DNA from: a virus
Reading direction: 5' to 3' (one strand)
DNA: 64,000 bases
IMG/VR virus record: IMGVR_UViG_3300025039_000014
Location: 1 to 64,000 of that record
A program made the translations under genes and the position numbers. This document shows, one piece after another, positions 5,458-61,104 of this stretch (position 1 is its first letter; every line of letters starts with the position of its first letter). The notes beneath the pieces were generated by a model. The model did not search any database and was not told the DNA's origin. It worked only from the letters and a program-made list of their open reading frames with translations.

Positions 5458-8400
5458 TTCTTTTCGGGAGAAGCCATTTCAGCGTAGGCGAAAGTATGCT
5501 CAAGCCGGCCGATATCATCGCGCTGGCTTCGTCGCTTGGATACTCCGCCGCCTGCCTGATGGACACCATGCAGATCAGCGGCATGATCGACTTCTCCAAA
5601 GCGGCCAAGGAGGCTGGCGTCAAGCCACTGATCGGTGTCCGCGTTCGCTGTGTGCCGGACCCGCTGCATCGTAAGCCGAAAAAAGGTGAGACCCATGAGG
5701 ACAAGCCTAATCCCGAGACGTTTCACGATGTCATCATCAAAAACGATGCAGGTCTCGGCGATATCTTCGAACTGCTGTCGCGGGCCTATTCCAGCCAGTA
5801 TTTCTACTATCGTGCCCGAGTCGGATTCGCAGACCTGGAAGAGGTCATTCAGCGCGGCAACCTGGTATCGCTCAACAGTGACGCTATGAGCGTGTTTCAC
5901 ACTCCGCACTATGACGACATCGCTTCACAGCTTCCCAGCGCTCAGAACGCAGAATTGAGCGTTCTAGCGATCCAACCGATCGAGACTCCTTATTACGATC
6001 AGCACAGCGCACGCGTGCTGGCGTATGCAGAGAAACACGACCTGCCGGTGATCGCTTATCTGCCGTGTTTTTACCTCGAGGGACAAGCCGACAGTCGCGA
6101 CATCTACCGCGTGATCGCTGAAAACTCGACCATCGATAATACCTTCGTCAAGAAGCCTTTTGCCCGCGATCTGCATCCGAAACGGGTCTGTGAATTGGCC
6201 GATGCACTCAAGGCATTCAGCCAGCGCATGGACCTCAAGGTCTCGAGCCAGATGCTGCGTCATCATCAGGTGATCGAGGACGCGGTCACGTATGAGTGGC
6301 ACAAGCTGCCGATCTCGCTGCCCAAGCTCTGCGATGACGAGGATGCCGAACTCGTGCGTCTGGCCAAGATCGGCTTCAAGGAGCGATTCTCCAAGCCGGT
6401 CATGGGCCACAAGCCCGACACGACGGAACTCCCCCTCTATCGCGACCGCCTGGCCTATGAGCTGTCGGTGCTGAAAACGATGGGCTTTGCCGGCTACTTC
6501 CTTCTGGTTCGTGACCTCGTCACCTGGTCCAAGGAGAGCGGCATTCTTGTTGGCCCCGGCCGCGGATCGGTCGGCGGATCGCTGGTGTCGTATCTACTCG
6601 GCATCACCGATGTCGACCCCATCCGCTTCGACCTGCTGTTCGAGCGATTCATCAACCCGGATCGACTCGATCTGCCCGACATCGACCTCGACTTCATGTC
6701 GTCGCGGCGCGGCGAGATCGTGATCTACCTGCGCGAGAAGTATGGCGCGGATCGTGTCGCCGGCATCACCAACTACTCGCAGCTCGGCTGCGCATCTGCC
6801 TTGCGCGACGTGGGGCGTGTTCACGGCCTGTCGATGTTCGATCTGGCCGTCTCCAAGAAGATCCCCGATGACGTGACACTCGAACAGGCTCGCGAGGCGG
6901 TGCCGGAGATCGAGAGCTATGCCAGCGCCAATCCTGATCTGTGGCGCCACTCCATCGCGCTCACCGGGGCGATGCGCTCATTCGGACAGCACGCCGCCGG
7001 TGTCATCGTCGGGGGTCAGCCGCTGATCAAGATGGCCGTCATCGAGTCGCGAACCCTCGATCCAGTGGTCAACTGGGACAAGCGCGTCTGCGAAGACATG
7101 GGCATGGTCAAGTTGGACGTCCTGGGACTTTCCAACCTGGACGTCATCCAACAGACCGTCGAGCGCGTGAAGGCACGCAAGGGCAAAGACCTCGACCTAC
7201 TCGACGTGTCGCTCGATCTGCCGGACGTGCTGGAGGCGTTCTCGCTGGGTCAAACCACTGCGGTCTTCCAGTTCGAAAGCGGCGGCATGAAGGGCTTGCT
7301 CAAAGACCTGGCGTTCATCGGCTGCCTGAACTTCGAAAACCTCGTCGCGGCGTCGGCGCTCTATCGTCCGGGTCCAATGGAATCCGGCATGCTCGAGACC
7401 TACGTCAACGTGACAAAGGGATTCGAAGCGCCCACCTATCCTCACCCGAAACTGGTGCCCGCGCTGGAGAAGACCCAAGGCGTTTTCATCTTTCAGGAGA
7501 ACGTCATGCAGGCCGCCCAGGCGTTGGCCGGATTCACCATGGCCGAAGCTGACGCGCTGCGCTCCGCGATGGGCAAGAAAGACGCCGTAAAAATGGCCAA
7601 GTCGCGTGATCTTTGGGTCGACGGCTGCATGCGCGAATCCGGCATGGAAGAGGAAGCTGCTGCCGATCTGTTCGACAAGATCGAGAAGTTCGCCGGCTAC
7701 GGCTTCAACCGTTCGCATTCCGTCGAATACACCATTTTGAGCTACTGGACCATGTTCTTGAAGGTCCGCCACCCCGCAGAATTCTTCGCCTCCTGTCTTT
7801 CCGTCATGGACTCCGACCGCATCCCCGGCCTCGTCGCGGATGCCTCAAAGCGAGGTATTTCCATTGGCCCGCCCGACATCAACACATCGACCGACCGCTA
7901 CGAGATTTATACCGATCCCACCACCGGAAGGGACACGCTGGTCGCCCCGCTCAATGCCGTCGCCAACATCAGCGACAAGGGTGCAAGAGCGATTATGGAG
8001 GCGCGAGAGACGGCCGGGGGATCGTTCACCGACCGAGACCAATTCTCGATGGCGGTCAACCGCCGGATCGTGAACGTGCGTGTCGTGCGCCATCTCGATC
8101 TCGTCGGTGCATTCGCATCGATCGAGCCCGGCACACCGTCGGCCACGGATTCCTCACGTCTCAAAGACCAGCTCACGCTGATGCCTGGCGTGCTCCAGAA
8201 GGTCGCCACCATCGAGCGCGACATGACCATCGACAAGTCGGTCGAGGCACGTCTTCTGAGCGTGGTGAACGACTACAGCCGTCACTATCACGACCGCTGG
8301 ACCAGCGTTCCGAAGATCGGCAAGCGGGCAAAGATCATGGTGATCTTCGACGCTCCGCTCTGGAGCGACGAGATCGAGGGAAAGTTGCTATCCGGCAAGC

Positions 8401-8783
8401 CCTATTTGTCGTGGACGACCGCCGCGCATCGCCTGGGTCTGGATCACGCCGACGTCTACTACACCACCCTCATGAAATTCGTGAAGGAGAAGGACGGTCA
8501 GTTCGAGACGACTGACATCGGCAAGTGCTCGGAATACCTGCTGCGCGAGATCGACGTGCTGAACCCGCCGGTGATCGTGACGATGGGCTCGCTTGTCACC
8601 CGTCTGGTCGCCGATGACAGCAAGAAGAAACCCGCTGAACTCGCTGGCAAAAGCATCTACGACCCGAAGAACGATCGCACCGTCATCTACGGATTCAACC
8701 AGGGAATGCTGTTCTTCAAACCCGAGATGACCGTTGACCTCGAGGGCTGCATTCGCAAGGCCATCGAAGCCGCTGGACTCTGA
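5454..8783 (+). CDS. dnaE: DNA polymerase III alpha subunit with C-terminal UDG-like domain
   Basis: PHP domain, GPGRGS, FERFINPDRLDLPDIDLDF, KLDVLGL, KFAGYGFNRSH. Confidence 0.95.
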   Translation: MILFGRSHFSVGESMLKPADIIALASSLGYSAACLMDTMQISGMIDFSKAAKEAGVKPLIGVRVRCVPDPLHRKPKKGETHEDKPNPETFHDVIIKNDAGLGDIFELLSRAYSSQYFYYRARVGFADLEEVIQRGNLVSLNSDAMSVFHTPHYDDIASQLPSAQNAELSVLAIQPIETPYYDQHSARVLAYAEKHDLPVIAYLPCFYLEGQADSRDIYRVIAENSTIDNTFVKKPFARDLHPKRVCELADALKAFSQRMDLKVSSQMLRHHQVIEDAVTYEWHKLPISLPKLCDDEDAELVRLAKIGFKERFSKPVMGHKPDTTELPLYRDRLAYELSVLKTMGFAGYFLLVRDLVTWSKESGILVGPGRGSVGGSLVSYLLGITDVDPIRFDLLFERFINPDRLDLPDIDLDFMSSRRGEIVIYLREKYGADRVAGITNYSQLGCASALRDVGRVHGLSMFDLAVSKKIPDDVTLEQAREAVPEIESYASANPDLWRHSIALTGAMRSFGQHAAGVIVGGQPLIKMAVIESRTLDPVVNWDKRVCEDMGMVKLDVLGLSNLDVIQQTVERVKARKGKDLDLLDVSLDLPDVLEAFSLGQTTAVFQFESGGMKGLLKDLAFIGCLNFENLVAASALYRPGPMESGMLETYVNVTKGFEAPTYPHPKLVPALEKTQGVFIFQENVMQAAQALAGFTMAEADALRSAMGKKDAVKMAKSRDLWVDGCMRESGMEEEAAADLFDKIEKFAGYGFNRSHSVEYTILSYWTMFLKVRHPAEFFASCLSVMDSDRIPGLVADASKRGISIGPPDINTSTDRYEIYTDPTTGRDTLVAPLNAVANISDKGARAIMEARETAGGSFTDRDQFSMAVNRRIVNVRVVRHLDLVGAFASIEPGTPSATDSSRLKDQLTLMPGVLQKVATIERDMTIDKSVEARLLSVVNDYSRHYHDRWTSVPKIGKRAKIMVIFDAPLWSDEIEGKLLSGKPYLSWTTAAHRLGLDHADVYYTTLMKFVKEKDGQFETTDIGKCSEYLLREIDVLNPPVIVTMGSLVTRLVADDSKKKPAELAGKSIYDPKNDRTVIYGFNQGMLFFKPEMTVDLEGCIRKAIEAAGL

Positions 8784-10116: not shown

Positions 10117-10452
10117 ATGAGCAGCAATTGGGAATGGTTCAGGGACGTCGACTGCGAGAAGGTGCGACGGTTTTTCAACGAAGAGATCAGCAAGGAGACA
10201 ACACCAGCGCGTTACACGCTGGTCGATCGAATTGCAGATTCGTCGAAAGCGGTAGGCTGCACGCTGATTGCGCTGAGCATCATGGGTGGCTGGATCAGCA
10301 ATGCGGAAGGTTCGAACTTCAACGCCTTCGTCGGCGTCACCCTCGGAACCGGCTGTCTCTCCCTGGGCTTGGTATTACACTGCCTAGTGGCTAAGATAGA
10401 TGCCAAGCAAGTCACGAAACCGGACTCACCGGAACAGGAGGTCCAATCATGA
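10117..10452 (+). CDS. membrane protein
   Basis: two hydrophobic segments; GGGGA RBS. Confidence 0.55.
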   Translation: MSSNWEWFRDVDCEKVRRFFNEEISKETTPARYTLVDRIADSSKAVGCTLIALSIMGGWISNAEGSNFNAFVGVTLGTGCLSLGLVLHCLVAKIDAKQVTKPDSPEQEVQS

Positions 10453-10544
10453 CCACGCTTCTGATCGCCTCGCCCTTCCTGCTTTTCATCGGCATCGCAG
10501 GGTTTTGGGCCATTCGCGTCACCCGACGAAGCACACGGCAATAA
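10449..10544 (+). CDS. 31 aa single-TM peptide (MTTLLIASPFLLFIGIAGFWAIRVTRRSTRQ)
   Basis: AGGAGG RBS, ATGA overlap; too short for the ORF track. Confidence 0.55.
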   Translation: MTTLLIASPFLLFIGIAGFWAIRVTRRSTRQ

Positions 10545-10606
10545 ACGAATTGATCTCTGAAAGCGTCCCTCTCGGGCGCTTTCTTCGTTTAGGGGGAATC
10601 ATAGCC

Positions 10607-10810
10607 ATGAAGTGGATTGCTACGCTGATCCTCGGAGCCTCTGTCCTGCTTATCGGGGCAGGACTCATGCCGCTACCCGCCATCGCCGGAGATCATGATG
10701 GCTGTGACGACATCGACATCGTCGAGCCGCCCTTTCCCGAGCCTTTCGACGACGATCCCTTTCCCGAGCCATTCGAATTCCCCGAGCCCGCCCCCGAAGA
10801 GACTGACTAA
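10607..10810 (+). CDS. small exported acidic Pro-rich peptide
   Basis: signal peptide MKWIATLILG...AIA followed by (P)FPEP repeats. Confidence 0.55.
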   Translation: MKWIATLILGASVLLIGAGLMPLPAIAGDHDGCDDIDIVEPPFPEPFDDDPFPEPFEFPEPAPEETD

Positions 10811-43003: not shown

Positions 43004-43103
43004 CCCCCGAGCGCTCGCTTCTAGCCCTGACGCGACGTGATATGATTGTCTTGTTGCAGAGATGCGATCTACCTTTTTGTGAGAGAGAAGGTTAGTTCTT
43101 GAA

Positions 43104-43129
43104 GCCGCCCCACTAGGGCGGTTTTTTTT
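43104..43129 (+). terminator. intrinsic terminator
   Basis: CCGCCC stem, GGGCGG followed by T8. Confidence 0.8.
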
Positions 43130-45604
43130 GTCTGCTGTCACAGTCGTCACGCCGATGATCACGCTTGTGACTCGTAGAATCACCTCAAGGTTAAAATTTT
43201 CTTGGCCATTTTGGTCCGTTTCAAAACCTCTGTTGCGAAACATTCTTATCTTGAAAAGACCATATCGCTCTTTCCTACCGCATATCAGTGACTTAACCAA
43301 AACCCGTCACAACATGAGAAACATTCTCAATAGAGGTTTCGTGAAGGAACCTGGCGGGACCAGGTCACTCGCGCCTCCCACCCCGAAACCCATGTGACGT
43401 CTGTGACGTTTGAGGTCAAAACATAAGGATCGAGGTGACAACACGAATCACGACCCGGTCACGCGATAAACCCTACGGATCAAGCGGTTCCGCGCACACC
43501 CCGCCCTAGCGTCACGACTCCTACCCCGGCATCACGACAACGTCACGCGAATCAGATATCGGGATTCGCTCCACAAAGCGCTCTAAAGCGTTCCCGAGCA
43601 TGAAGCGCTACGTCGACTCAAGTTGATCAGGGAACGCGCTCAAAACGAAGCGCTGACGTCTTCCCGAGCATGATGGATCGCTCGAATCGCTCGAATCGCT
43701 CGACAGCACGAAATCGACAGGGATCGACTCCAGAGACACAGATCACGGACCCCGATCCGAGTGAGACGGTCTCTCGAGCACCAGGCTAGCCGCGCCCGAC
43801 ACCATGATCAGCCAGATCCCATGCGGCAGACCTATATCTCTGTTGTCTGTGTTTTCAGAGAGTGATGGATTTATAGATGGAGACAGGCACCCGAGCTAAA
43901 AACAAAACCTCACTCGGGAGAGACGAAATCCCTGGAAACCTGGAATGGGAAACACCTCGGAACCGGGGTTTCTCCCAACTCACAAAGCCTGATCACCAGG
44001 AGTCCGGGGCTGCGCCGCGTCTAGGCTTCCCGGATCACCATGAAAAAGGGTCTCGCTCTGACCAGGCTCAGGCAACGGGTCTTTCCCAACCAGGCTCCCG
44101 AACACCACGGAATCAGGAAACCAAGTGCCAGGACTCAGCCAGCCGGATTCCGGGAACACCAAGAAAATGGGTGAAATGTTTCCAGGGCTCAGGCTCGGGG
44201 GAAAGAGAAACCAGAGTGAGGAAACCGAATCGACCAGGAGAAAGACAATCCGGGAGAGAAAGCGAACCTGAACCTCAAGGGAACAGAGAGAGCCTGATGA
44301 GCATGGGAGAGAATGAATCCAAGGAGATCATGAGTGTGGGAGTGATAGAGCTGTGGAAAAGGCAGAGAGACGGGAGAGGACGGATAGACGGGAAGAGGTA
44401 TGGAAACGGGGAAAGCGGAGAGAATAGAGGTAGAGAAAAACGGGAGAGAGATGGTGACGGGGAAACGGGGACATAAGGGGCCGGGGCATTGCCGCCTCTG
44501 CCAATCACTCGCCTGGCCGCCTAACCTTGGTCACAGCCTCCACAGCCATCCCGAGCGCCCATCTCCCTTTCTCTCCCAGGCATCGCCGATTCGCACCATA
44601 CTCGGGAAAGGGAAGCTATCCACATAGACACCGACACCAAGGGAGAATCGGGAAAGGCGAGCGATGCACCTATAGAGCGACGCCAAGGGATTGAGCCCGT
44701 GGTCGATCGCAAAGTGAAGGCACCGGGAGAGACCTTGCTAATGCCGGTCATGGGGATTTTTCGCCTCCCGAATCGGTGACGCTCGCGAGGGTCATGGTGC
44801 TCGAGGAACGACCTCGGTGGACACGCCGCGACACCACTCGGCGAGGCGAATGTAACCGTCGGTTACCTTGTCTGAATAGCCGCTGAAAACAGGGTTATTT
44901 CACGGCTTAAAATTGGTGAGTGCAAATAGGCCAGAGGGCAGTGCGTTTTTTCGAGACGGATTTACAGACATAACACCGCGCCGGACCAGAGCTCATTTTT
45001 TCGAGCAGCATCGCAAGTATAAGACCGCAGGTGCGACCTGGCCGTCAAGGGCTTCCTCGGAGCCCAGCATCCACGGGGGTTCGTTCCTCTACCTCACCTG
45101 ACGACTCGATTCGCTTCCCCATTAAAAATCGGAGTTATTATAATAAGAAAAAAACTATCGTTCTTCAGCGTAGAAATTAGTTTCACTCGGTTACAGCTTT
45201 AAATTGCAGGGTTTTGCCCCTGCTGTGCTCGCCCTTTAAATTCTTTACTTAAATATTAATCCAAACTTTAAAATAATATCGCGGTTACACATTCTGAGGT
45301 GCTTCTCTGCAAGCTCATCCTTCCCCTCACCCCGCGTGGCTGGGCGCTTGTAGCCACAAATGCACACGCAAGAGGTGGTAGTAGATCGGATGACAACACA
45401 TGGCAATACATGATCAGGAACCCGAGAGTCGGTCATCGCTCAAAAATGAGCGATATGAAAAAAAGTGGCTCCGAAAGCAAATAAGGGCTTGCCTGCATCG
45501 CAAGGGCAATATAAGTTTTAAATCGTCGACGTTACGCGTTGGCAATGAAACCCACACGCAACAACACACGCCCACTACACGGCGTGACGAGAGAGGTATG
45601 CCTG
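43130..45604. other. 2.5 kb non-coding repeat-rich region (possible origin or other cis site)
   Basis: no credible ORF; GTCAC cluster, ATCGCTCGA x3, purine-biased tract, AT-rich block. Confidence 0.55.
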
Positions 45605-48508: not shown

Positions 48509-48568
48509 TTTCGTGAAAGGTTAGCTATCAACACGTAGAGCGCATCGCCGAGATAATGACCATAGCCA

Positions 48569-48638
48569 AGGGTCTCTCCCGCTCAGGCTAAGGGTCTCTC
48601 TTCGCCAGGCTACCGAGGGGTCTTTTTCTCGCAGGCTA
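48569..48638 (+). repeat. three tandem 22 bp repeats RGGGTCT-N8-CAGGCTA
   Basis: units at 48569, 48591 and 48617. Confidence 0.8.
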
Positions 48639-49063
48639 CCAGCACTCACCAAAACGACTCACCGTGGTGGAAATCTCCCATAAAGCGCCATCTGACGGGT
48701 CGACCAGGATCTCACTGTGGTCCTCTCACCGGGGGTGACGTGTCGAACTCGCCCTGCCGCTCACTGACCTTGAGAGCGTGATTCCCGCCCTACCACTGCC
48801 AGTGTCACCCGCTCGCCTGCACACCACGGTCACAGCCACCCAGAATCGCCCCAGGAGCCATTCTCCACTCGGAACCGGGCTTGGTGCTGTCTTGCCATGG
48901 GGAAAGGGAGACGGGGCTGTCTGGGGCTCGTCTGACCGAGGGTAACGCTGACCAGCACCAGGATTGACTGCCGGGATGACGAATTGACGGTGATCGCCAC
49001 GCAACCGACTCACCATGGGGAAAGGGAAACGGGTCCGGTGAGAATCCGGGTGCCACGGTCACA

Positions 49064-49186
49064 GGGAAAGGCTGGCGATCCACTGCTCTCGGTGAGAACC
49101 AAGGTCACTGGGAACGGGAAAGGCTGGCGATCCAACCGGGAACGGGAAAGGCTGGCTTTGCATTTTTGGGAAAGGCTGGCGATCCA
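49064..49186 (+). repeat. 19 bp direct repeats GGGAAAGGCTGGCGATCCA x3 at 52 bp period, plus one partial copy
   Basis: copies at 49064, 49116 and 49168; 13 bp partial at 49144. Confidence 0.9.
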
Positions 49187-49605
49187 TAGACCGTGGTGGA
49201 TAGCCGTGGTGCGGGGTGCTGCCAGCCGCGATTTTTGGCGGCGGCGACGTTGCCACGACGGGTTTTTGCCGCTGGTTACTTTGCCACCCAACGATTTTGT
49301 GGCTAACGACTTGGTGATGTTTTCGCCAGCCTGCTAATGATTAGCCACCCAATCGTTTCTTTGCTGGTCAATCCTCCGGTTCGTTCGCGTCATATCCATT
49401 AGCAGCATACGCGTTAATTCTAAGCGTGATTTGCTCGGGGAAATCAATCTTTTTTTGGTCAAATTCCCTCATAGCGGGAATTTATAGGGTGTTTACGCGT
49501 CATAGTTTTATTTGTGTTTACGCGTTAACAGTAAATCGATAATCTGGATACGTGCTCAAGACGAAGCACACAAAAAAAAGTCTCTCTCTCATTAAGGAAA
49601 TCATC

Positions 49606-50238
49606 ATGAAAATCACAGCTAACGATCGCACTATTGCTACTAACTCCAACGAAAAGAAAGTTTCGTTGTCTGAAAAATTCAATCTTGTCAAGACGCACGT
49701 TTCTTCTCTTGCTATCACGTCTAAGCAAACGAAGATTAAGGAGACGCAAAGCGCAATTATCGACGCATCCAAAAAGCGCGTCGAGAACTACGAAGCGAAA
49801 GCGCAGCGCAACGAAACAGACTATCGCGAATTAACAGTCGAAGTGACTCACGCAAAATATAACGCGTCGTTGCTCGACTTGGACGCAAAAGCGATGAAAT
49901 ACACTATCGACAAGAACATCAATCTCGCATCCGCTGTTAATGAGTCGCGCGAATATAAGAAACGTCTCAAGTCGTTTTTGGAAGCGTGCGCGAACAACGA
50001 CGCATCCAAACTCGACAAAGCGCTAGCGAAGCTACAAGCGCACATGAAAGCGTCCAGCGCATCCGCTATCACTGTCGCGCAAGTCGCGACAATCATGGAA
50101 CACAGCACGACGACGCAAGCGAGCTACTTTAAGAAATTCGCGACAATCCTCGGAGTTGTATCGTCCGAACGCTCTAATCAGTCTCCTATGACAATCAATA
50201 AAGAAAGCGATGTTTATAAAGACTTCGTTTCACTCTAA
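49606..50238 (+). CDS. hypothetical protein (possible C-terminal wHTH), in the GGB-free island
   Basis: TAAGGA RBS; 210 aa with only one Gly and one Pro. Confidence 0.8.
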   Translation: MKITANDRTIATNSNEKKVSLSEKFNLVKTHVSSLAITSKQTKIKETQSAIIDASKKRVENYEAKAQRNETDYRELTVEVTHAKYNASLLDLDAKAMKYTIDKNINLASAVNESREYKKRLKSFLEACANNDASKLDKALAKLQAHMKASSASAITVAQVATIMEHSTTTQASYFKKFATILGVVSSERSNQSPMTINKESDVYKDFVSL

Positions 50239-50251
50239 TTGATCGACACAT

Positions 50252-50277
50252 AAGCGCACTCCTTAGAGTGCGCTTTC
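50252..50277 (+). terminator. hairpin/terminator
   Basis: AAGCGCACTC-CTTA-GAGTGCGCTT-TC. Confidence 0.65.
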
Positions 50278-50303
50278 TCACTGGATTCCGAGGACAATTC
50301 GAC

Positions 50304-50609
50304 ATGATTAAATTCATTATCCGCAATAACACAAAGCGCTTTTACAATGCGCACGCTGTCGCGCAAGTCGACGCGCAGATGATAAACACTCGCATCGTCT
50401 ACTTCGTTCGCGCTGGATATATCATCGACACGAAAGCGCATCCATCATGCGCAGACTTTGAGCGTCAGCACGTCGCAACATATGCGACACGACAGGATGC
50501 GGAACACGCAGCGTATGACGCAATTGACGGAATCGCTAACGAAGTCGACTTCGACGTGATCGAAGCGTATTTTTATCGCTATCATGTCCAGCAATTCAAA
50601 GCAGCGTAG
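50304..50609 (+). CDS. hypothetical protein, in the GGB-free island
   Basis: GAGGA RBS; 101 aa. Confidence 0.7.
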   Translation: MIKFIIRNNTKRFYNAHAVAQVDAQMINTRIVYFVRAGYIIDTKAHPSCADFERQHVATYATRQDAEHAAYDAIDGIANEVDFDVIEAYFYRYHVQQFKAA

Positions 50610-51063
50610 CGCGTCCAGCAGCGCGCAGAGAGCGCGTTAACGTCAATCCGCTGTCATGATATGGATTCGATGTTAGCGCGTCTCTGAGGACGAAATAGAG
50701 CGATTGAGGATTAGCTAATGAAAGCGAGGACGATGGAGACATTAGGACGACATGAATTAGCAAAGTCTTAGAAATTCCCGACTTAGTGGCTGGGCATAGC
50801 CGCCTCAATTTCCCATTCCCGGCACTCCCCTTATACCACCAGGCCCCAGCCCCAGAGCCCCGCCCTTATACCACCGGCTACGAGTTCCCCGCGTCCCAAG
50901 CGTCCCCGCATCCCGAGTCCGACCGCCTGCCGTGAATCACCGAGCCCCATCGCCACCCCTGACCGACGTGAACCCGTGCCTTATACGACCGCGACCACCC
51001 GGCGTTGCCGGCAGTCTCAGCCCGCTCACAAGCCCTGGGCGTTGCCAGGGCTCCAAGTCGACC

Positions 51064-51510
51064 CTAGCTCCCTTCTCTAACGATCTTTTGAGGCGTAATT
51101 CCGCACCAGGTGTTCAAGCCCACCAAGTCTGCAAGCTCTTCTGCCGTCGACTCGCAGGCTTTCACAGAGGTCGTGGACTTGATCGAAACGTAGCTACCCA
51201 TGAAGGTGATCGACGTCGGGGTAGCTTTGCTCAAATCTTCGTTCATATCTGGCAGCACGACAGCCTCTGTCTTGACGCAGCGAAACTCTGCGTCCGCGTT
51301 AGGCCCTTTCACATCGCCAACTACCTCGGAAAGCTTGGTCGCAATCTCGACGCAATAATCCTCGTCATCCGCGATTTTATCGCCCTGCAAAACCACGTTG
51401 ATAGGTGGCGTATCGTCAAAAGCGTGGTGCCCTACTATTGTCCATCGAAAATCGGCAAGCGCCGTCGATGAAAAGAGCAAGGTGCTCGCGGCGATTAAAA
51501 ACAACTTCAT
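51064..51510 (-). CDS. exported Cys-containing protein
   Basis: signal peptide MKLFLIAASTLLFSSTALA; 4 Cys. Confidence 0.75.
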   Translation of the reverse strand: MKLFLIAASTLLFSSTALADFRWTIVGHHAFDDTPPINVVLQGDKIADDEDYCVEIATKLSEVVGDVKGPNADAEFRCVKTEAVVLPDMNEDLSKATPTSITFMGSYVSIKSTTSVKACESTAEELADLVGLNTWCGITPQKIVREGS

Positions 51511-51610: not shown

Positions 51611-52933
<1,323 letters not shown>

Positions 52934-55734: not shown

Positions 55735-55786
55735 CTTTAATGCGGGAAAAAATGTCCACGCGTAAGTATAAGTGAAGACTAACACG

Positions 55787-56452
55787 ATGAGCGAAATCCA
55801 GAAAGTAGACCCTCGGGAACTCCGCAAAAATTCTTGGAATACCAACAAGATGACGGCGGAAAACGAGGAAAAGCTGAGAACCAGCGTCCGGCGCAATGGC
55901 TTGCTCGGCGTGGTGCTGGTTCGAGAGCTGAAAGACGGCTCTATGGAGATCGTCGGCGGCGAACACCGCGTCGATATCGCTATCGAGGACGGTCAGTCAA
56001 CGGTCAACGTCCAAAACCTGGGCAAGATCAGCGATGCTCGCGCCAAGGAAATGATGCTGCTGGACAACGGCCGCTACGGACAGGATGACCCATTCGAACT
56101 GGCCGGCATTCTGGACGAGCTCGCCGCCGGCGGCGACGTGGATCTCTCCACCTTCATGCCCTTCGCCAGCGAGGACATGGACAAGCTGCTAAGCACCACC
56201 GACATCGACCTCGACAGTCTCGATTACCTCGACGAGCCGGACTACACCGGCGTCGAAGTCACCACCGAGAAGCGTGAGTCGAAAGTCCAGTCGCATCAGG
56301 TGCTGCGCTTCAAGGTCACGATGGACGACGCCGCGGCCGTGAAGCGCGTGATCGACAAGATCATGGAGTCACGGGGCTTCACCGAAGAGGACTCGCTGAC
56401 CAACGCCGGTGATGCCCTGGTCTACCTGGCGGGGGAATACGCCAATGAGTAA
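55787..56452 (+). CDS. ParB/Srx N-terminal domain protein 1
   Basis: NSWNTN, EIVGGEHR, DN. Confidence 0.85.
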   Translation: MSEIQKVDPRELRKNSWNTNKMTAENEEKLRTSVRRNGLLGVVLVRELKDGSMEIVGGEHRVDIAIEDGQSTVNVQNLGKISDARAKEMMLLDNGRYGQDDPFELAGILDELAAGGDVDLSTFMPFASEDMDKLLSTTDIDLDSLDYLDEPDYTGVEVTTEKRESKVQSHQVLRFKVTMDDAAAVKRVIDKIMESRGFTEEDSLTNAGDALVYLAGEYANE

Positions 56453-57119
56453 CGACCGCGGCGGCCAGGAGATCGTCTACCTCGATCCCAAGACCCTTAT
56501 TCCCTACGAGAACAACGTCAAGCGCCACCCGCGCAAGCACATCGAGGCGCTGAAAGCTCTGATGCTGCGTCACGGCTTCTCGAAGGGAAACCCCATCCAG
56601 GTCGACCGCAACATGGTCATCATCGCTGGACACGGCCGCACGGAAGCCGCGTGCGAGCTTGAGATGCCGGTGGTGCCGGTTGTCATCCGTTCGGACCTGT
56701 CCGACGACGAGGTGAAGCGCTGGCGTCTGGAAGAGAACAAGTCGGTCTCCAACGACTACGACGTGGTCGGCATGAAGGCCGAGATTGCCGATCTACTGGA
56801 TCTCGATGGGCCGTTGGTCGGCTTCGACGAGAAAGAGTGGGCGGTGCTGACCGAAGACCTCACGGCTGACTTCGATGCCGACTCGATGATCGCCGATCTC
56901 GAGGCCGAGATGGAATCCGCCGCGAAGCATCACGACGAGACCACCGAGAAGGCTCGCACCGAACAGGTGGCGATCACCGATCTTCTGGGATTCCGGCATG
57001 TGCCGGCGGCGCAGCAGCGCAAGATCGTCAAGTTCGTGGCGCGCCTCGAAGCTGAAACCGGCAAGACCGGCGCTGATGCCTTCCTGGCTCACATCGATCA
57101 GAGCGAGGGCGCGGCATGA
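56445..57119 (+). CDS. ParB/Srx N-terminal domain protein 2
   Basis: LIPYENN.K.H, IIAGHGR, RLEENK. Confidence 0.88.
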   Translation: MSNDRGGQEIVYLDPKTLIPYENNVKRHPRKHIEALKALMLRHGFSKGNPIQVDRNMVIIAGHGRTEAACELEMPVVPVVIRSDLSDDEVKRWRLEENKSVSNDYDVVGMKAEIADLLDLDGPLVGFDEKEWAVLTEDLTADFDADSMIADLEAEMESAAKHHDETTEKARTEQVAITDLLGFRHVPAAQQRKIVKFVARLEAETGKTGADAFLAHIDQSEGAA

Positions 57120-57754
57120 GCGACATCGTCATCGACAAGCGATTCAGCTCCCGCGTGACGCGCACCGATCGTGTGCTCGAAGTGGCCGAAGCCTTCGGGC
57201 TGGGCCTTGAGGATCGCGAGTTCGTGATCTACGACCAGCTGTCCGTCCAGGTCGAGCGTGGTGATGTCGTCTACATCAACGGGCAGTCCGGTTCCGGCAA
57301 GTCGTTGGCGCTGCGCGAGATCGCTCGCCAGTTGGCCGACCAGGGCATGCGCGTCGCCAACATCGACGAGATCGCCCTGGAAGACGTCCCGTTGATCGAT
57401 CAGATCGGCACCGACACCAACGACGCGGTTCGCCTGCTGTCGCTGGCTGGGCTCAACGATGCCTATCTGCTGGTGCGATCCCCTGCCGAGCTTTCCGATG
57501 GTCAGAAATATCGCTTCCGGCTGGCCAAGGTCATCGAGTCCGGCGCCGACGTGTGGGTCGCCGACGAGTTCTGCGCGGTCTTGGATCGCGAAACCGCAAA
57601 GGTCGTCTCGTTCAACGTCCAGCGCACGGCACGCAAGGCTGGCGCCACGGTGATCGTGGCCACCACCCATACCGACTTGGTAGAAGACCTCAAGCCAAGT
57701 CTGGTGATCGAGAAGTATTACAAGGCCAAAGTCAGCATGGAGAGACCCGCATGA
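57116..57754 (+). CDS. stand-alone ABC-type ATPase
   Basis: GQSGSGKS, LSDGQ, ADEF, ATTH; no permease gene nearby. Confidence 0.88.
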   Translation: MSDIVIDKRFSSRVTRTDRVLEVAEAFGLGLEDREFVIYDQLSVQVERGDVVYINGQSGSGKSLALREIARQLADQGMRVANIDEIALEDVPLIDQIGTDTNDAVRLLSLAGLNDAYLLVRSPAELSDGQKYRFRLAKVIESGADVWVADEFCAVLDRETAKVVSFNVQRTARKAGATVIVATTHTDLVEDLKPSLVIEKYYKAKVSMERPA

Positions 57755-58230
57755 GTGATGCTTCGACAACAGACGGACCCGCTACCGATACCTCTACGGT
57801 CGACCATGCGAAGACCATTCAGATCGTCGAGAAGCGCTGCAAGAAGCACGGTGTGGCGATCGTCACGATCCAGCCGTTCAGTGCGCGCCTGTTCGTGTTC
57901 AGAGGTCTCGATACCTACAGCGACAAGCTCAAGGCGATCTTCGGCGTCGAGACGCAGATGGGCTGCATCCTGCAAGACCTGAACGTCGGTGGTTTCTTCG
58001 GCTCCGAGTTGGACGTCAACGGCTGCCCGATTCTGGTGCTGGCGATCGATGGCACGACGAAATACCCGGAAGAAGCCATCTGGCACGAAGCGCTGCACGC
58101 GACCTTCGTCATCCTGGACCTCTACGGGGTCGAGTTCGACGTCGATAACCACGAAATCTACACCTACACCCAGGGCTACATCGTCAGTCAGATTCGCCAG
58201 CAACTCTACGGGCGAGAGTCGTTTCGATGA
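57751..58230 (+). CDS. HExxH zincin-like protein
   Basis: WHEALHA...NHE. Confidence 0.65.
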   Translation: MSDASTTDGPATDTSTVDHAKTIQIVEKRCKKHGVAIVTIQPFSARLFVFRGLDTYSDKLKAIFGVETQMGCILQDLNVGGFFGSELDVNGCPILVLAIDGTTKYPEEAIWHEALHATFVILDLYGVEFDVDNHEIYTYTQGYIVSQIRQQLYGRESFR

Positions 58231-59132
58231 TCCCGAATGACGTCGCGATCCGCCGGCCGGCCGCCTCTGAGTGGTCGGAGGGCTTCTCGTTGCTGTCGCG
58301 AATGGTCCTCGAGCGCGGCACCCGCGAAGACTGGCTGGCGCTGCACGATCTTCACTACAAGACCGAGACTGACTCCTTCGGCCAGACCTACTACCGCTGC
58401 ACGCTCGACGGCACGCTGATCGGCGTGGTCGTCACGGCCTACCCGAAGCTGTTGCTGGAACCGCGTCATCGCATGTTCCCGAAGATCAAGCCGACCGGCG
58501 GCTCCAAGCTCACCAATACGGCGCGGGCGAAGTTCGTGAATGACCTGTTCGCGATCGTCAACCGCTCGGTCGTTGACACGCTCTACCGCGGTGTCGGCGT
58601 CTCCTATCGGATGCTCAACCTGGCCGCCCGGATGCATCCACGCCAGGTGGTGGAGATCCAATCGGCCATGTCGAAATTCTCGCCCTTCGCCATGAAGGCA
58701 GGGTTCCTCTTCGCCAAGCCGATCCCGAACAAGAACTACGCCAAAGGCGTAGCGATGGTCACTCGTTTCTTCGATAGCCATCCGATGGACACCGTCGGCC
58801 TGCTCGAAGAGATCGACGCCATGCCGGACTCGCTCAAGCTCAAGACCCTGCGTGAGCTCACGGCGTTCTATTACAAGTGCTCGGCGCTTGAGAAGACCGG
58901 TCGCAACCTGGGTCGCGGCCTGGCTGACCTGGATTACGAGCCTGCCGAGCTGATCGCCAAGATTCAGGGACTGATCTTCGCCTCCCCGCTCTATGGCGCC
59001 TATCGCAATCCTGACTTTGGCCGTGCGCTGCCCGACCGGCTACCGCTGGCCGCGTTCGATCTCCAAAGTCCCAACGAACCGCTGAACCTCGCTGCCCTGG
59101 AAACCCTGATTGGAAGCGTCCCCGATGAGTGA
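58227..59132 (+). CDS. GNAT-fold transferase, candidate DNA base-modifying enzyme
   Basis: L..LHY, R.VVDTLYRGVG (acyl-CoA motif A), AMSKFSPF..KAG. Confidence 0.75.
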   Translation: MIPNDVAIRRPAASEWSEGFSLLSRMVLERGTREDWLALHDLHYKTETDSFGQTYYRCTLDGTLIGVVVTAYPKLLLEPRHRMFPKIKPTGGSKLTNTARAKFVNDLFAIVNRSVVDTLYRGVGVSYRMLNLAARMHPRQVVEIQSAMSKFSPFAMKAGFLFAKPIPNKNYAKGVAMVTRFFDSHPMDTVGLLEEIDAMPDSLKLKTLRELTAFYYKCSALEKTGRNLGRGLADLDYEPAELIAKIQGLIFASPLYGAYRNPDFGRALPDRLPLAAFDLQSPNEPLNLAALETLIGSVPDE

Positions 59133-59418
59133 ATACCGCATGACCCAGAAGCAGCTCCAGATCATCACCGCGATCCACGAGCACCAGAAGAACCACAAGC
59201 AGGACATCGACCTGGATCAGCTGCTGGGCTCTCTGCCCTACGAGACGACCAAGGAATCGATGCAGTTCAGCCTGCGAGCCCTGATCAAGAAGGGTCTGCT
59301 GGCGAAGGTAGGCGACGCCGTGATTCGTCGTGGACGGGCTCGTCGGACCTATCGGCTGACGCTGATGGCCAAGGAAATGTTCCGGCTGGGGTCAGAAAAA
59401 TCACACACACCAGCTTAA
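59125..59418 (+). CDS. winged-helix DNA-binding protein
   Basis: MTQKQLQII...SLRALIKKGLL...RGRARRTYRLT. Confidence 0.75.
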   Translation: MSEYRMTQKQLQIITAIHEHQKNHKQDIDLDQLLGSLPYETTKESMQFSLRALIKKGLLAKVGDAVIRRGRARRTYRLTLMAKEMFRLGSEKSHTPA

Positions 59419-60459
59419 AGTATTGATACAATCGGCAGAAGCTGTGCCAAGCAAATATCACTGATACCACCGATAAAACTCATACCACCGAACGCCCACT
59501 CGACACCGATATCACCGACTCCCCGCGACTCACACCTGCCGACATGACCGCTATCACCTGGCTTCACCTCCGCTAAGACCGACTGCACGCGATACCCAGG
59601 TTCAAGACCGAGACCACCGAGACAACCGATCGCTGACAGACCGCGCTGAAAGCGCAACGACGACGCACTGAACGAACCGACAGTCACCCGGCGCCACGAT
59701 CACCGATATCACCGCCCTATTCCGACGGCCAAGAGATCCGACCATCCCCAGAATGGTCCCAGGTGGGAAGCGAGTCCGGTATGTGTCCGCATCATGTTCT
59801 GGAAATTCAGGTCGGTCCCGTCCGACAAGGTCAATATCTATCGGCCTCATTGGCACAAACTCTCCAGACATAGAGCGCAGTTGGCGCGAAAAATCGTCGT
59901 CTGGGAGACGGGGAAGTTGCGCCTTCTCCCTTTGTGCGTTTCTGGCGAAAAATTCTGAGAGCACAGGATAACGCGAAATAATGCTTTCTAATCAATGCTT
60001 TACAGAGAAAACGCAACCCCGCTCATCCGAGGATATTGGGATCAAAAACACCCCTTCATCCGAGGCATCCAAATTCTCTCTAAAGTATTGTTTTGAAACG
60101 AGAAAAGAGTTTTTAGCTCCGATGCCTCAGTCCCTCTATAAATACACTCTCAAAACAAGAACCCCTAAAAACAGAATATTCAGTTTACGCAAAGTTAACG
60201 CGTAAACGTAAACGAAAAACCATCTGATATACGCGTAAAAATTCGGCCAGCGCGGGCCGCCGACCCTGACGACGGGAAACCTCGGAACGGATCGGAACCT
60301 GGCGGCGACCACCCGCCCAATGACTCTCTGAAAATCTGATCTTCGTGCCCCTGCTCAAATTTGCGTTCTAAGCGACGATATCGCTCCGATCCACCCCGAC
60401 ATACAGGGTAGCTTCGGAAAATCGCTGAGAACGCATCCCTGATCGATTGGGAGCGATTT
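59419..60459. other. non-coding region upstream of terS, candidate pac/late-control region
   Basis: ACCG-rich tract, A-tract-rich block, ACGCGT motifs. Confidence 0.5.
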
Positions 60460-61104
60460 ATGAGCGACACGAAGACTGCACGAAAGCGAATGTCTCCGAG
60501 CCAGTGGGCAGAAGCGCGTGCGATGTGGGCGTCGGGCGAGTTCACGCTGGAACAGATCGCCGAGAAATACGGCGTCGCCCGCGAAACCCTGTCGCGCCGG
60601 TTCGCCAAGGACGGGGTCAAGAAGGGTCAGAGCCAGATCGATCGCAAGGTCGAGCAGGAGCTGATCGAGAAAGCCGTCCAGGCTGCCGACAAGTGGGCGG
60701 AGCGCGGCGAACAAGCCCGCGAATCGTTCTTCAAGATGAACAAGATGGTCGTCGCGCTGACCGGCAAGGTCTTGCAAGACGCGATCGCCGGGGGCAAGGG
60801 GCTCTACACCGCCCAGGCCGACCTCAAGGCACTCCAGATGACATCGATCATTCTGGAGAAGACTCGGGCGAATCAGTGGGCCGTCGTGGGTCTCGACAAG
60901 GAAACCGACAACGACGACGAAATCCCCCAGCTGCTGGTGCGCACGCTGACCCCGGATCAGGTCGTCGAACTCCAGCGCATGCAGCATCAGGTAACGCCGG
61001 AAGACGAGATCGAGGTCGGCGACGCCGAACCCTACCTCGAAGACATCGATGTTCTCGATGACGAAGACGACGATGCGGTTATCGTCGAAGAGGCCGACGA
61101 CTAA
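60460..61104 (+). CDS. terS: terminase small subunit
   Basis: N-terminal HTH (TLEQIAEKYGVARETLSRR); TAATG-coupled to terL. Confidence 0.8.
   Translation: MSDTKTARKRMSPSQWAEARAMWASGEFTLEQIAEKYGVARETLSRRFAKDGVKKGQSQIDRKVEQELIEKAVQAADKWAERGEQARESFFKMNKMVVALTGKVLQDAIAGGKGLYTAQADLKALQMTSIILEKTRANQWAVVGLDKETDNDDEIPQLLVRTLTPDQVVELQRMQHQVTPEDEIEVGDAEPYLEDIDVLDDEDDDAVIVEEADD

Follow-up and report, generated by a model that had tools for sequence, protein, structure and literature searches.

Box-bearing non-coding arms of opposite strand polarity flank a word-free gene cassette in nickie-like siphophages

Two non-coding arms of opposite strand composition enclose a small gene cassette in which the words GG[CGT] (GGB) and [ACG]CC (VCC) do not occur and, judged from sequence comparison, the boxes of this module and the polarity of its right arm are conserved across phages of three host genera. 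No description of such a polar repeat-arm module was found in the literature searched. The arms are built of specific conserved boxes, like protein-binding sites, rather than of generic motif density, and the conservation of these boxes makes it very probable that the arms are functional cis elements to which proteins bind. The best explanation that we can offer, namely that the arms form a protein-binding boundary tied to the genome end or packaging side, is tentative and is given a probability of roughly 0.3.

The window analysed here is a 64-kb stretch (64,000 nt) that forms the first part of an integrated SSU5/nickie-like siphophage with a genome of 104,759 bp, a genome-wide GC content of 58% and, probably, a host of the Halomonas group. 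The integrase of this provirus lies at 103386-104759. Among the other phage genes are those for a DnaB-like helicase, a DnaG-like primase and a SerRS (PHROG 16140), and a conserved ParB-ParB-ABC ATPase-GNAT-type operon occupies 55772-59418. The possibility that the SerRS gene marks a prophage border beside a host serS was ruled out, as helicase, ParB, terminase and portal genes follow downstream and the whole window is phage. The loci compared were the Halomonas-type loci L031-L036, the Pseudomonas syringae nickieviruses nickie, Nican01 and hairong, and Rhizobium phage RHEph10; L032 is a 106-kb IMG/VR phage with an ORF1 53% identical to that of the window. When SerRS was used as bait for relatives it mostly retrieved bacterial serS genes at prophage edges, the helicase bait in viral contigs retrieved relatives that were at best just 44% identical, and a pattern scan with CTGGGNATAGCCGCC retrieved 118 stretches, one of which was a true relative that matched L032 exactly in the portion read.

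The features of the locus, in window positions, are:

48570-48640, + strand: three direct GGGTCT-N8-CAGGCTA boxes at the outer edge of the left non-coding region (repeat search; TRF period 22)
48641-48889: outer part of the left region, rich in C on the + strand with a skew of about -0.2, polarity opposite to that of the inner G-rich array (composition profile)
48890-49190, + strand: left arm proper, a G-rich array of boxes (repeat search)
48899-48926, + strand: canonical G-quadruplex motif in the left arm
49186-49390, + strand: T-rich iteron-like repeats of TTTGCCRC / TTAGCCACC type, spacing ~20 bp (sequence reading, repeat search)
49391-49605, + strand: AT-rich zone, GC 36-39% (composition)
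49489-50776: island without GG[CGT] or [ACG]CC
49606-50238, + strand: ORF1, 210 aa, conserved orphan family
50244-50266, + strand: intrinsic-terminator-like hairpin followed by a T-tract, 3' of ORF1 (sequence reading)
50304-50609, + strand: ORF2, 101 aa, poorly conserved orphan
50632-50681, + strand: conserved inverted repeat after ORF2, 10-nt arms, loop ~30 nt (RNAalifold)
50693-50704, + strand: invariant box AAATAGAGCGAT, identical in the window, L031, L032 and L033
50763-50804, + strand: boundary boxes AAGTCTTAGA(AATTCCCG) and CTGGGCATAGCCGCC, exactly where GGB/VCC resume (alignment A2)
50777-51060, + strand: right arm, C 44% on this strand
50844-50865 and 50887-50914, - strand: two G-quadruplex motifs in the right arm
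51064-51510, - strand: 148-aa gene whose product starts like a signal peptide; it converges with the cassette and bounds the right arm

The word-free cassette

The stretch free of GGB and VCC (49488-50777) is 1,289 bp long, whereas the second-longest such gap in the genome measures 112 bp, and the corresponding islands of nickie, Nican01 and hairong (1083-1137 bp) contain no GG or CC at all. As GGA and TCC occur in the island at the expected frequency, avoidance of CRISPR PAMs (type I-F CC, Cas9 NGG) was rejected as the cause, and shielding 1% of a genome would be expected to be of no help against CRISPR. General avoidance of restriction sites does not fit an island rich in palindromes (ACGCGT, GCGC, GTCGAC), a codon-level or tRNA cause was discarded because the non-coding parts of the island avoid the motif too, and a cause in protein composition was discarded because the ORF1 homologue of L035 has ordinary GGB/VCC content.

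ORF1 has 22 homologues that are 49-86% identical to it, and its homologues in nickieviruses are 28-35% identical; comparison with Pfam, PHROG families and PDB sequences returned no match. An AlphaFold model (pLDDT 88) predicts an N-terminal three-helix bundle, which gave generic matches alone in the fold search, followed by a C-terminal winged-helix-like domain, and the fold matches of ORF1, to RepL-, MarR-, TubR- and SelB-type winged helices, are all weak (Foldseek E of at least 0.1). Two putative GTTTACGCG operator half-sites (49491 and 49516) precede the gene and GTGACGCGTCAC-type palindromes occupy the corresponding place in relatives, while the hairpin that follows it is also found in L032, L033 and nickie. 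ORF2, which matched no Pfam or PHROG family, is alike in L031, L032 and L033, and the inverted repeat behind it shows compensatory changes across four loci (columns 34-44 / 71-81 of alignment A3).

Strand polarity and conserved boxes of the arms

To describe the flanks of the island, GGB and VCC were counted on the + strand in every overlapping 300-bp window across the 104,759 bp of the genome. GGB reaches its genome-wide peak at 48875 (40 per 300 bp; mean 14.9, sd 5.2) and VCC at 50771 (56 per 300 bp; mean 17.3, sd 5.3), and the genome-wide maximum (+29) and minimum (-45) of the difference between the two coincide with these same positions; a crude ranking of intergenic regions added nothing to the sliding windows. 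Runs of three or more G number 17 in 48890-49260, where no such run of C occurs, and 3 in 50777-51060, where runs of C number 18; G makes up 37% of the left flank, and the right flank has the C content listed above. The mirror-image polarity that a sequence-only reading of this DNA had described, G-rich to the left and C-rich to the right, is thus real, and the skew holds its significance, the arms being extremes across the genome. That reading had also called the flanks saturated in the avoided motif, and this claim did not hold beyond composition: 46 GGB were observed in the left flank against 40.8 expected, and 53 VCC in the right flank against 46.7 expected, an observed/expected ratio of ~1.1, with GGA and TCC counts matching expectation, so that the apparent saturation follows from base composition alone. 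Within the range that it gave, the first 190 bp (48700-48890) are C-rich with a skew of -0.21 (C 34% and G 25% over 48510-48889), and the left intergenic stretch as a whole (48509-49551) is skew-neutral at +0.02. Of the two boundaries it took to be sharp, the right one is, whereas on the left the G-rich array stops near 49260 and is separated from the island start at 49489 by 230 bp of T-rich, iteron-like and AT-rich DNA with ordinary motif density. The absence of a credible ORF from the flanks was borne out, as none of the ORFs of at least 50 aa from six related loci maps to either flank by tblastn, and, since the copy number of the repeat units in the flanks also differs among relatives, we regard the flanks as non-coding. 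Of the five canonical G-quadruplex motifs in the genome, the arms contain three, all on the strand that reads inward, against 0.17 expected at polar flank positions in composition-preserving shuffles; they are not conserved in most relatives, and the left one is absent from the relatives' left arms. A scan for sigma-70 promoters and terminators stayed at chance level, and Rfam returned a single sub-threshold match, unrelated and outside the flanks (43051-43131).

The left arm carries two CCATGGGGAAAGGGA boxes (48895 and 49013) and four GGGAAAGGCTGGCGATCCA boxes (49064, 49116, 49144 and 49168). The GGGAAAGG-type boxes, six in all, are spaced 24-52 bp apart, with a GCCRYGG-type box ahead of most; GGGAAAGGCT is present in four copies in this arm and nowhere else in the genome. 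Homologues of the left-arm boxes occupy the equivalent position in L031, L032, L033, L034, L035 and L036, and the outer GGGTCT-N8-CAGGCTA box pair recurs at 44040-44100 and in L034 at 661-725. In place of the T-rich repeats the relatives have denser CCCTCA-N-GYGGG arrays (L034 1290-1570; also L031, L032 and L033), and a comparable AT-rich stretch is found in L032, L033, L034 and the nickieviruses; in the window this zone includes a AAATTCCC-N7-GGGAATTT palindrome at 49461-49483. The right arm carries three CCTTATAC[CG]ACC boxes (50829, 50864 and 50979), the only copies of CCTTATAC in the genome. The C-rich arm with two or three CCCTTAYAC boxes stands at the equivalent position in L031, L032, L033, nickie, Nican01 and hairong, and AAGTCTTAGA marks the right border of the island in nickie, hairong and RHEph10 too; the boxes that this sharp border carries are invariant across lineages. 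The 148-aa gene beyond the arm has no family match in Pfam or PHROG and is missing from L032.

The box-bearing arm module surrounds the cassette in L031, L032, L033, L034 and L036 as well as in nickie, Nican01, hairong and RHEph10; in the nickieviruses small minus-strand genes lie between the left arm and ORF1. The right arm is C-rich in all phages that carry the module and is a local extreme (percentile of 0.002 or below) in all seven loci with a long right flank, RHEph10 included, whereas G-richness of the left arm depends on the lineage. The sequence-only reading survives both of the refuting conditions that it had set, since the skew also recurs in orthologous loci: it returns in Halomonas-type and Pseudomonas phages, but RHEph10 has the right arm only, its left arm not being G-rich, and since the left arms of L032 and L031 are weakly G-rich, mirror symmetry is not universal. 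RHEph10 is informative in a further respect. The long ORF of its cassette lies on the opposite strand, yet GCCACGG and AAATTCCC on the left and AAGTCTTAGA with the C-rich arm on the right retain the orientation of the genome backbone, indicating that the arms follow the genome and not the cassette genes. Taken together, the genome-wide extremes of skew and their recurrence at orthologous loci argue that the flanks are functional. The opposite view, that the arms have no function of their own and owe their skew to neighbouring repeats or non-coding drift, could draw on the compositional origin of the motif excess and on the skew-neutrality of the whole left intergenic region, but it is highly improbable and already largely refuted by conservation, since arms that are extremes across the genome keep their boxes and right-arm polarity over a divergence at which DnaE is ~40% and ORF1 28% identical.

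Possible roles: genome end, origin, insulator or machine signal

We propose that an old phage module underlies the locus: the flanks would be its conserved non-coding arms, and its core would be a small cassette that regulates itself and is free of GG/CC (in the window, of GGB/VCC). The boxes would bind sequence-specific proteins, with the winged-helix-like ORF1 protein and the small terminase as candidates, and the arms would mark a boundary at the level of DNA that is linked to the genome backbone and not to transcription of the cassette. The sharp right border, AAGTCTTAGA followed by three CCCTTAYAC boxes, would then be the packaging or genome-end side and the cassette would sit at the last-packaged, first-injected tip, while the left arm with its boxes, iteron-like repeats and AT-rich zone may be a subterminal nucleoprotein site, either an injection stop or origin-like. 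The 1 kb of non-coding DNA that precedes terS contains, at 59464-59706, ATAYCACCG repeats akin to the right-arm box and, at 60196, the island operator in reverse complement. The layout resembles lambda cos (cosQ-cosN-cosB), with its three R sites for the small terminase, in that a sharp conserved boundary is followed by three direct box copies 35-115 bp apart and related boxes lie near terS; unlike in lambda, the site here is 9.4 kb away from terS, and the comparison is one of box layout. In 3'-cos phages the cos site is usually found directly upstream of terS, and for this reason the distance from the right arm to the terS start near 60460 counts against a genome end at the right arm. The right arm does not adjoin the terminase genes; a second non-coding repeat region does, directly upstream of terS. 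The ends of sequence records are arbitrary. The record of Rhizobium phage X66 is circular and does not have the cassette at its end. A nickievirus large terminase clusters with those of 3'-cos packagers (PMC8537276).

The proposed first-injected position finds a likeness in phage T5 and its injection-stop signal, and here too the match is partial. In both, a small early gene block avoids sites that occur elsewhere in the genome and stands beside non-coding direct and inverted repeats. The first-step-transfer (pre-early) block of T5 lies in a mapped terminal repeat and its two-step DNA entry has been shown experimentally, whereas a terminal placement of our cassette is a proposal; furthermore, the cassette avoids a word of 2-3 nt and not a restriction site, and has two arms of opposite strand composition.

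An iteron-type replication origin or control region, in which ORF1 would be an origin-binding initiator flanked by arrays of its binding sites, is the most credible of the alternatives, at somewhat less probable than a genome end. Unwinding would start from the AT-rich DNA at 49391-49605 and the right boxes would be a second, copy-control or handcuffing, set, much as an initiator gene lies between two iteron sets in mini-P1 (incC-repA-incA) and mini-F (incB-repE-incC) and as iterons accompany an AT-rich region in the lambda origin. Dense short direct repeats do adjoin the AT-rich stretch upstream of a gene with palindromic putative operators, and repeats follow downstream; in L034 the repeats become a dense and regular array of more than 12 tandem CCTCA-N-GYGGG units. 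The left inner repeats share the CCCTYA core, in identical orientation, with the right boxes, the predicted C-terminal domain of ORF1 has weak RepL/MarR/TubR/SelB-type matches, the phage has its own helicase and primase with no recognised initiator among the ~50 larger ORFs scanned, and in RHEph10 the cassette has a ParA-like gene at a distance of 2.5 kb. The combination of iteron-like repeats, AT-rich stretch and winged-helix gene fits an origin as well as it fits a genome end. However, the outer left boxes differ in sequence from the right boxes, the nickieviruses, nickie among them, have no regular iteron array, and ORF1 gave no match to a Rep or O family, its fold matches all being as weak as noted above. 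DnaA boxes (one mismatch at most) are not enriched, with 7 in 64 kb, one of them in the left arm, against 6.5 expected, and the cumulative GC skew, which in this genome tracks gene direction, does not turn at this locus. An origin would also leave the GG/CC-free initiator gene and the opposite compositions of the arms unexplained.

The sequence-only reading had suggested insulators or roadblocks, and a two-sided transcription insulator acting by composition, isolating an independently regulated unit from the neighbouring operons, is rather unlikely. RNA leaving over either arm would be C-rich and G-poor, as in a Rho utilisation site, and incoming RNA would be G-rich and prone to R-loops or G-quadruplexes, in keeping with the G-quadruplex motifs on the inward-reading strand of the arms. 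The polarity persists even where box sequences diverge, the right arm follows immediately 3' of the last cassette gene with a C/G of ~2.6 on the sense strand (50800-50999; GC skew -0.45), and transcripts of the nickievirus minus-strand genes would enter the left arm as C-rich RNA. The idea is weakened by RHEph10, in which the cassette is transcribed in the opposite direction and yet the right arm is C-rich on the + strand, the left arm is not G-rich and the arm boxes keep the backbone orientation. Conserved repeated boxes of this kind are not normal for Rho-dependent terminators, and the terminator after ORF1 and the hairpin after ORF2 are already in place.

Less likely again is a reading in which the arms serve as polarity signals to some machine that recognises GG/CC steps, be it a translocase, a nuclease or a DNA-marking system. 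Converging G-rich boxes would load, orient or stop such a machine and thereby spare the cassette, which, alone among the phage DNA, would stay readable for the host at the start of infection. The suggestion of sites that point toward the island stands as far as orientation goes, the G-rich strand of each arm running 5'->3' toward the cassette from both sides, and G-rich oligomers converging 5'->3' on a central zone are likewise a property of the FtsK KOPS GGGNAGGG, which converge on dif, and of RecBCD Chi. Unlike KOPS, the arm boxes have a 3-nt spacer between G-runs and no GGGNAGGG pattern, and they span a scale of 300 bp rather than of replichores; and the Chi-like GCTGGCG words of the window's left boxes are absent from the arms of the relatives L032, L033, L034 and Nican01.

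It is improbable that GG(B)/(V)CC carries a chemical mark set by the phage and that the arms, as the most marked DNA, block polymerases leaving an unmarked cassette. On this account the G-rich strand would be the template in both arms for any transcription heading outward, the cassette would be the sole stretch unmarked by design, and the conserved ParB-ParB-ABC ATPase-GNAT-type operon might be brought into play. The heavily modified borders that had been envisaged nonetheless found no backing: the motif is not above base-composition expectation in the flanks, the arms hold specific conserved boxes rather than generic motif density, the left arm of RHEph10 does not have this polarity, and the genome gave no match to PF01702 (TGT/DpdA), PF01555 (N6/N4 methyltransferase) or PF00145 (C5 methyltransferase) and no known writer among the other ORFs scanned, searches that divergent or novel writers could escape.

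Significance of the polar arms

In avoiding a two-letter word the cassette forgoes glycine, proline and tryptophan, which implies that some agent exerts strong selection in infected cells. No conserved cis-elements other than the arms are attached to the cassette, and the arms, being found in the cultured and tractable P. syringae phages nickie, Nican01 and hairong, offer a practical handle on what the cassette is protected from and on its place in packaged DNA. Were the left arm an origin, it would be the first proposed for this phage group within the literature searched; a genome end at the right arm would make the cassette the leader that is injected first in a large group of phages, phage-plasmids among them.

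Strand polarity of the island flanks

The window makes up the first 64 kb of a virus record (104,759 bp, GC 57.9%, classed by IMG/VR as a provirus). A tyrosine integrase lies at the right-hand end of this record, and the whole window is phage DNA. Its genes include CobT/CobS-like proteins, a DnaE-type polymerase, UvsX, SbcCD, ribonucleotide reductase, a gp32-like SSB, DHFR, a phage seryl-tRNA synthetase (SerRS), a UvsW-like helicase, ParB-like proteins, large terminase and portal, and the part of the record outside the window encodes a DnaB-like helicase, a DnaG-like primase and a ligase. The closest named kin are Rhizobium RHEph10-type phages, Pseudomonas syringae nickieviruses and SSU5-type phage-plasmids (DnaE ~40%, portal 52-57% identity). 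The SerRS (51650-52933; 427 aa, both Pfam domains, PHROG 16140) is 58-64% identical to bacterial SerRS, and a syntenic phage (L032) has no SerRS gene.

GGB (GG[CGT]) and VCC ([ACG]CC) were counted on the + strand in 300-bp windows across the whole 104,759-bp genome. GGB peaks at 48875 in the left arm (40; mean 14.9, SD 5.2) and VCC at 50771 in the right arm (56; mean 17.3, SD 5.3), and the genome-wide maximum and minimum of the GGB-minus-VCC difference coincide with these positions. The G-rich left and C-rich right polarity described in the sequence-only reading is thus real and extreme. Between the arms, 49488-50777 contains zero GGB and zero VCC over 1,289 bp, the runner-up gap in the genome being 112 bp.

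That reading had also called the flanks saturated in the avoided motif, yet there is no excess over base composition: the left flank (G 37%) has 46 GGB against 40.8 expected, the right flank (C 44%) has 53 VCC against 46.7 expected, and the permitted words GGA and TCC likewise stand at expected counts. Since the counts follow composition, ‘saturated’ amounts to ‘G-rich’ and ‘C-rich’. Of the two boundaries described as sharp, only the right one is; the left G-rich array stops near 49260, and between it and the island lie ~230 bp of ordinary motif density, made up of T-rich repeats and AT-rich DNA. The segment 48700-48890 is C-rich, and the left intergenic region is skew-neutral overall. No conserved ORF lies in either flank, in keeping with the sequence-only reading. 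Three of the five canonical G-quadruplex motifs of the genome sit in the arms on the inward-reading strand (0.17 expected); most of them are not kept in relatives.

Boxes in the arms and in other non-coding regions

Both arms consist of specific boxes, listed here with the island.

48570-48640: three GGGTCT-N8-CAGGCTA boxes, outermost on the left
Between these boxes and the G-rich array: C-rich segment
48895-49186: left array of two CCATGGGGAAAGGGA and four GGGAAAGGCTGGCGATCCA boxes
49186-49390: T-rich repeats, TTWGCCRC type
Left side: AT-rich zone, GC 36-39%, with a AAATTCCC-N7-GGGAATTT palindrome
AT-rich zone, immediately upstream of ORF1: two GTTTACGCG operator half-sites
49488-50777, + strand: ORF1 (210 aa), hairpin and T-tract, ORF2 (101 aa), inverted repeat, invariant box AAATAGAGCGAT
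Right side start, precisely at the return of GGB/VCC: AAGTCTTAGA(AATTCCCG) and CTGGGCATAGCCGCC
Right arm: three CCTTATAC[CG]ACC boxes in C-rich DNA

A GCCRYGG-type box sits ahead of most CCATGGGGAAAGGGA/GGGAAAGGCTGGCGATCCA boxes, a CCCTYA core occurs both in the inner repeats on the left and in the boxes on the right, and the right arm reaches as far as the stop codon that ends a convergent gene of 148 aa. In the island, pairing of the inverted repeat is kept through compensatory changes across four loci.

A second non-coding region, 43900-45540, is built of the same blocks, and a 1-kb non-coding region upstream of the small terminase gene terS (59420-60460) combines ATAYCACCG repeats with the reverse complement of the island operator.

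44040-44100: GGGTCT/CAGGCT boxes
44100-44480: purine-rich, most G-skewed stretch of the genome
44459 (+) and 44550 (-): G-quadruplex motifs facing each other
44604 and 44650: two GGGAAAGG boxes
45120-45300: AT-rich block
59464, 59482, 59509 and 59706: ATAYCACCG repeats
60196: palindrome GTTAACGCGTAAAC, reverse complement of the island operator

Counterparts of the 43900-45540 cluster lie upstream in L032 (4372-4496), L034 (424-467) and nickie (L039, 340-1400). The region upstream of terS, a candidate cos or late-promoter region, also contains the genome's second strongest C skew and an AT-rich, GGB-poor part. Minus-strand GGGAAAGG words at 10700-10800 are coding sequence, not arm boxes: they fall towards the C-terminus of a small ORF (10400-10810) whose product looks secreted, where PFPEPF-type repeats produce a local C-rich skew. 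An operon at 55772-59418 (two ParB-like proteins, an ABC ATPase and an ABC ATPase/acetyltransferase-type protein) is kept in SSU5, Cyrano, nickie and RHEph10, and one of its ParB-like proteins is annotated in RHEph10 as a DNA methyltransferase.

The module in related phages

The ORF1 family comprises 22 proteins, and homologues are labelled Halomonas and Vreelandella; nickieviruses encode further homologues at 28-35% identity. In the ORF1 model (pLDDT 88) a three-helix bundle precedes a winged-helix-like domain, and every match in fold searches is weak.

The Halomonas-group loci retrieved (L031-L034 and L036) repeat the module. The window is syntenic with L032, an IMG/VR phage of 106 kb, whose left side combines three GGGAAAGGCTCT boxes with repeats of the CCCTCA type, an AT-rich zone and an GTGACTAGTCAC operator. 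L032 also has ORF1, shares the terminator and right-side boxes of the window, and carries three CCCTTATAC boxes in a C-rich arm. Avoidance varies by locus (GGB/VCC on the + strand: window 0/0, L034 3/2, L033 2/13, L032 3/42, L031 18/28). In L031, a prophage in the Halomonas sulfidaeris ATCC BAA-803 chromosome, avoidance is partial and several frameshifts break the ORF1 homologue (7850-8480), a pattern that may reflect either homopolymer errors in the sequencing behind the assembly or decay of this prophage copy. The ~49% identical homologue in L035 (1863-2377) has ordinary GC-rich codons and normal GGB/VCC content, so the ORF1 protein does not force avoidance; L035 lacks the iteron-like inner repeats and the AT-rich zone, and has a minus-strand gene between its GGAAAGGC boxes and ORF1.

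The cassettes of the nickieviruses nickie, Nican01 and hairong have zero GG or CC over 1,083-1,137 bp. Their left arm has up to 31 GGB per 200 nt and is thereby G-rich (skew ~+0.2 in nickie and Nican01, weaker in hairong), with CCGCGG boxes and, in nickie, AAATTCCCTATA palindromes; their right arm is C-rich, opened by AAGTCTTAGA in nickie and hairong, with three CCCTTACAC boxes in all but hairong, which has two. RHEph10 has a 1.15-kb GG/CC-poor cassette with GCCACGG and AAATTCCC boxes on a left side that is not G-rich, AAGTCTTAGA and a C-rich arm on the right, and its long cassette ORF on the opposite strand. The deposited annotation (L042, 28945-29786) places two + strand CDS there; because the stop-free opposite-strand ORF of ~200 aa has a start and ribosome-binding site, the deposited strand is probably wrong. 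Across loci, the right arm is a local extreme in all seven with a long right flank, and the left arm ranks at or above the 0.986 percentile in 7 of the 10 loci. The polarity is therefore conserved, recurring in Halomonas-type and nickievirus loci and, for the right arm only, in RHEph10.

Possible roles of the arms

The arms are conserved cis-acting elements and candidate protein-binding sites. Their orientation is set by the backbone of the genome, in which helicase, ParB and terminase lie downstream, and is independent of the way the cassette genes run. Our tentative preference, at a probability of roughly 30%, is a DNA-level boundary linked to genome end and packaging. Packaging would start on the right, at the sharp and conserved border with its three direct boxes; the cassette would form the tip packaged last and injected first, with the left arm as a subterminal nucleoprotein site. 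On this reading terminase would bind the conserved boxes and a physical genome end would lie at the arm; both steps are inferences, and the 9.4 kb to terS speak against them. An iteron-type origin with ORF1 as initiator is possible at slightly lower odds: it accounts well for the left side but leaves the opposite composition of the arms unexplained. That composition agrees with a transcription insulator that works on both sides by making outgoing RNA C-rich, an idea weakened by RHEph10 and rather doubtful. The heavily modified borders of the sequence-only reading fit the geometry but are unsupported and improbable, given flanks without motif-specific enrichment and a genome without a TGT, N6/N4 or C5 methyltransferase match.

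Among the nearest known systems are the lambda cos region, replicons of the mini-P1 and mini-F type, the T5 pre-early region and injection-stop repeats, polar G-rich signals such as KOPS and Chi, and Rho utilisation sites. None of them matches in all defining features, and our literature search found no paper describing the cassette-arm module. Overall, the arms very probably serve as functional boundary elements in a cassette module that is widespread and undescribed.
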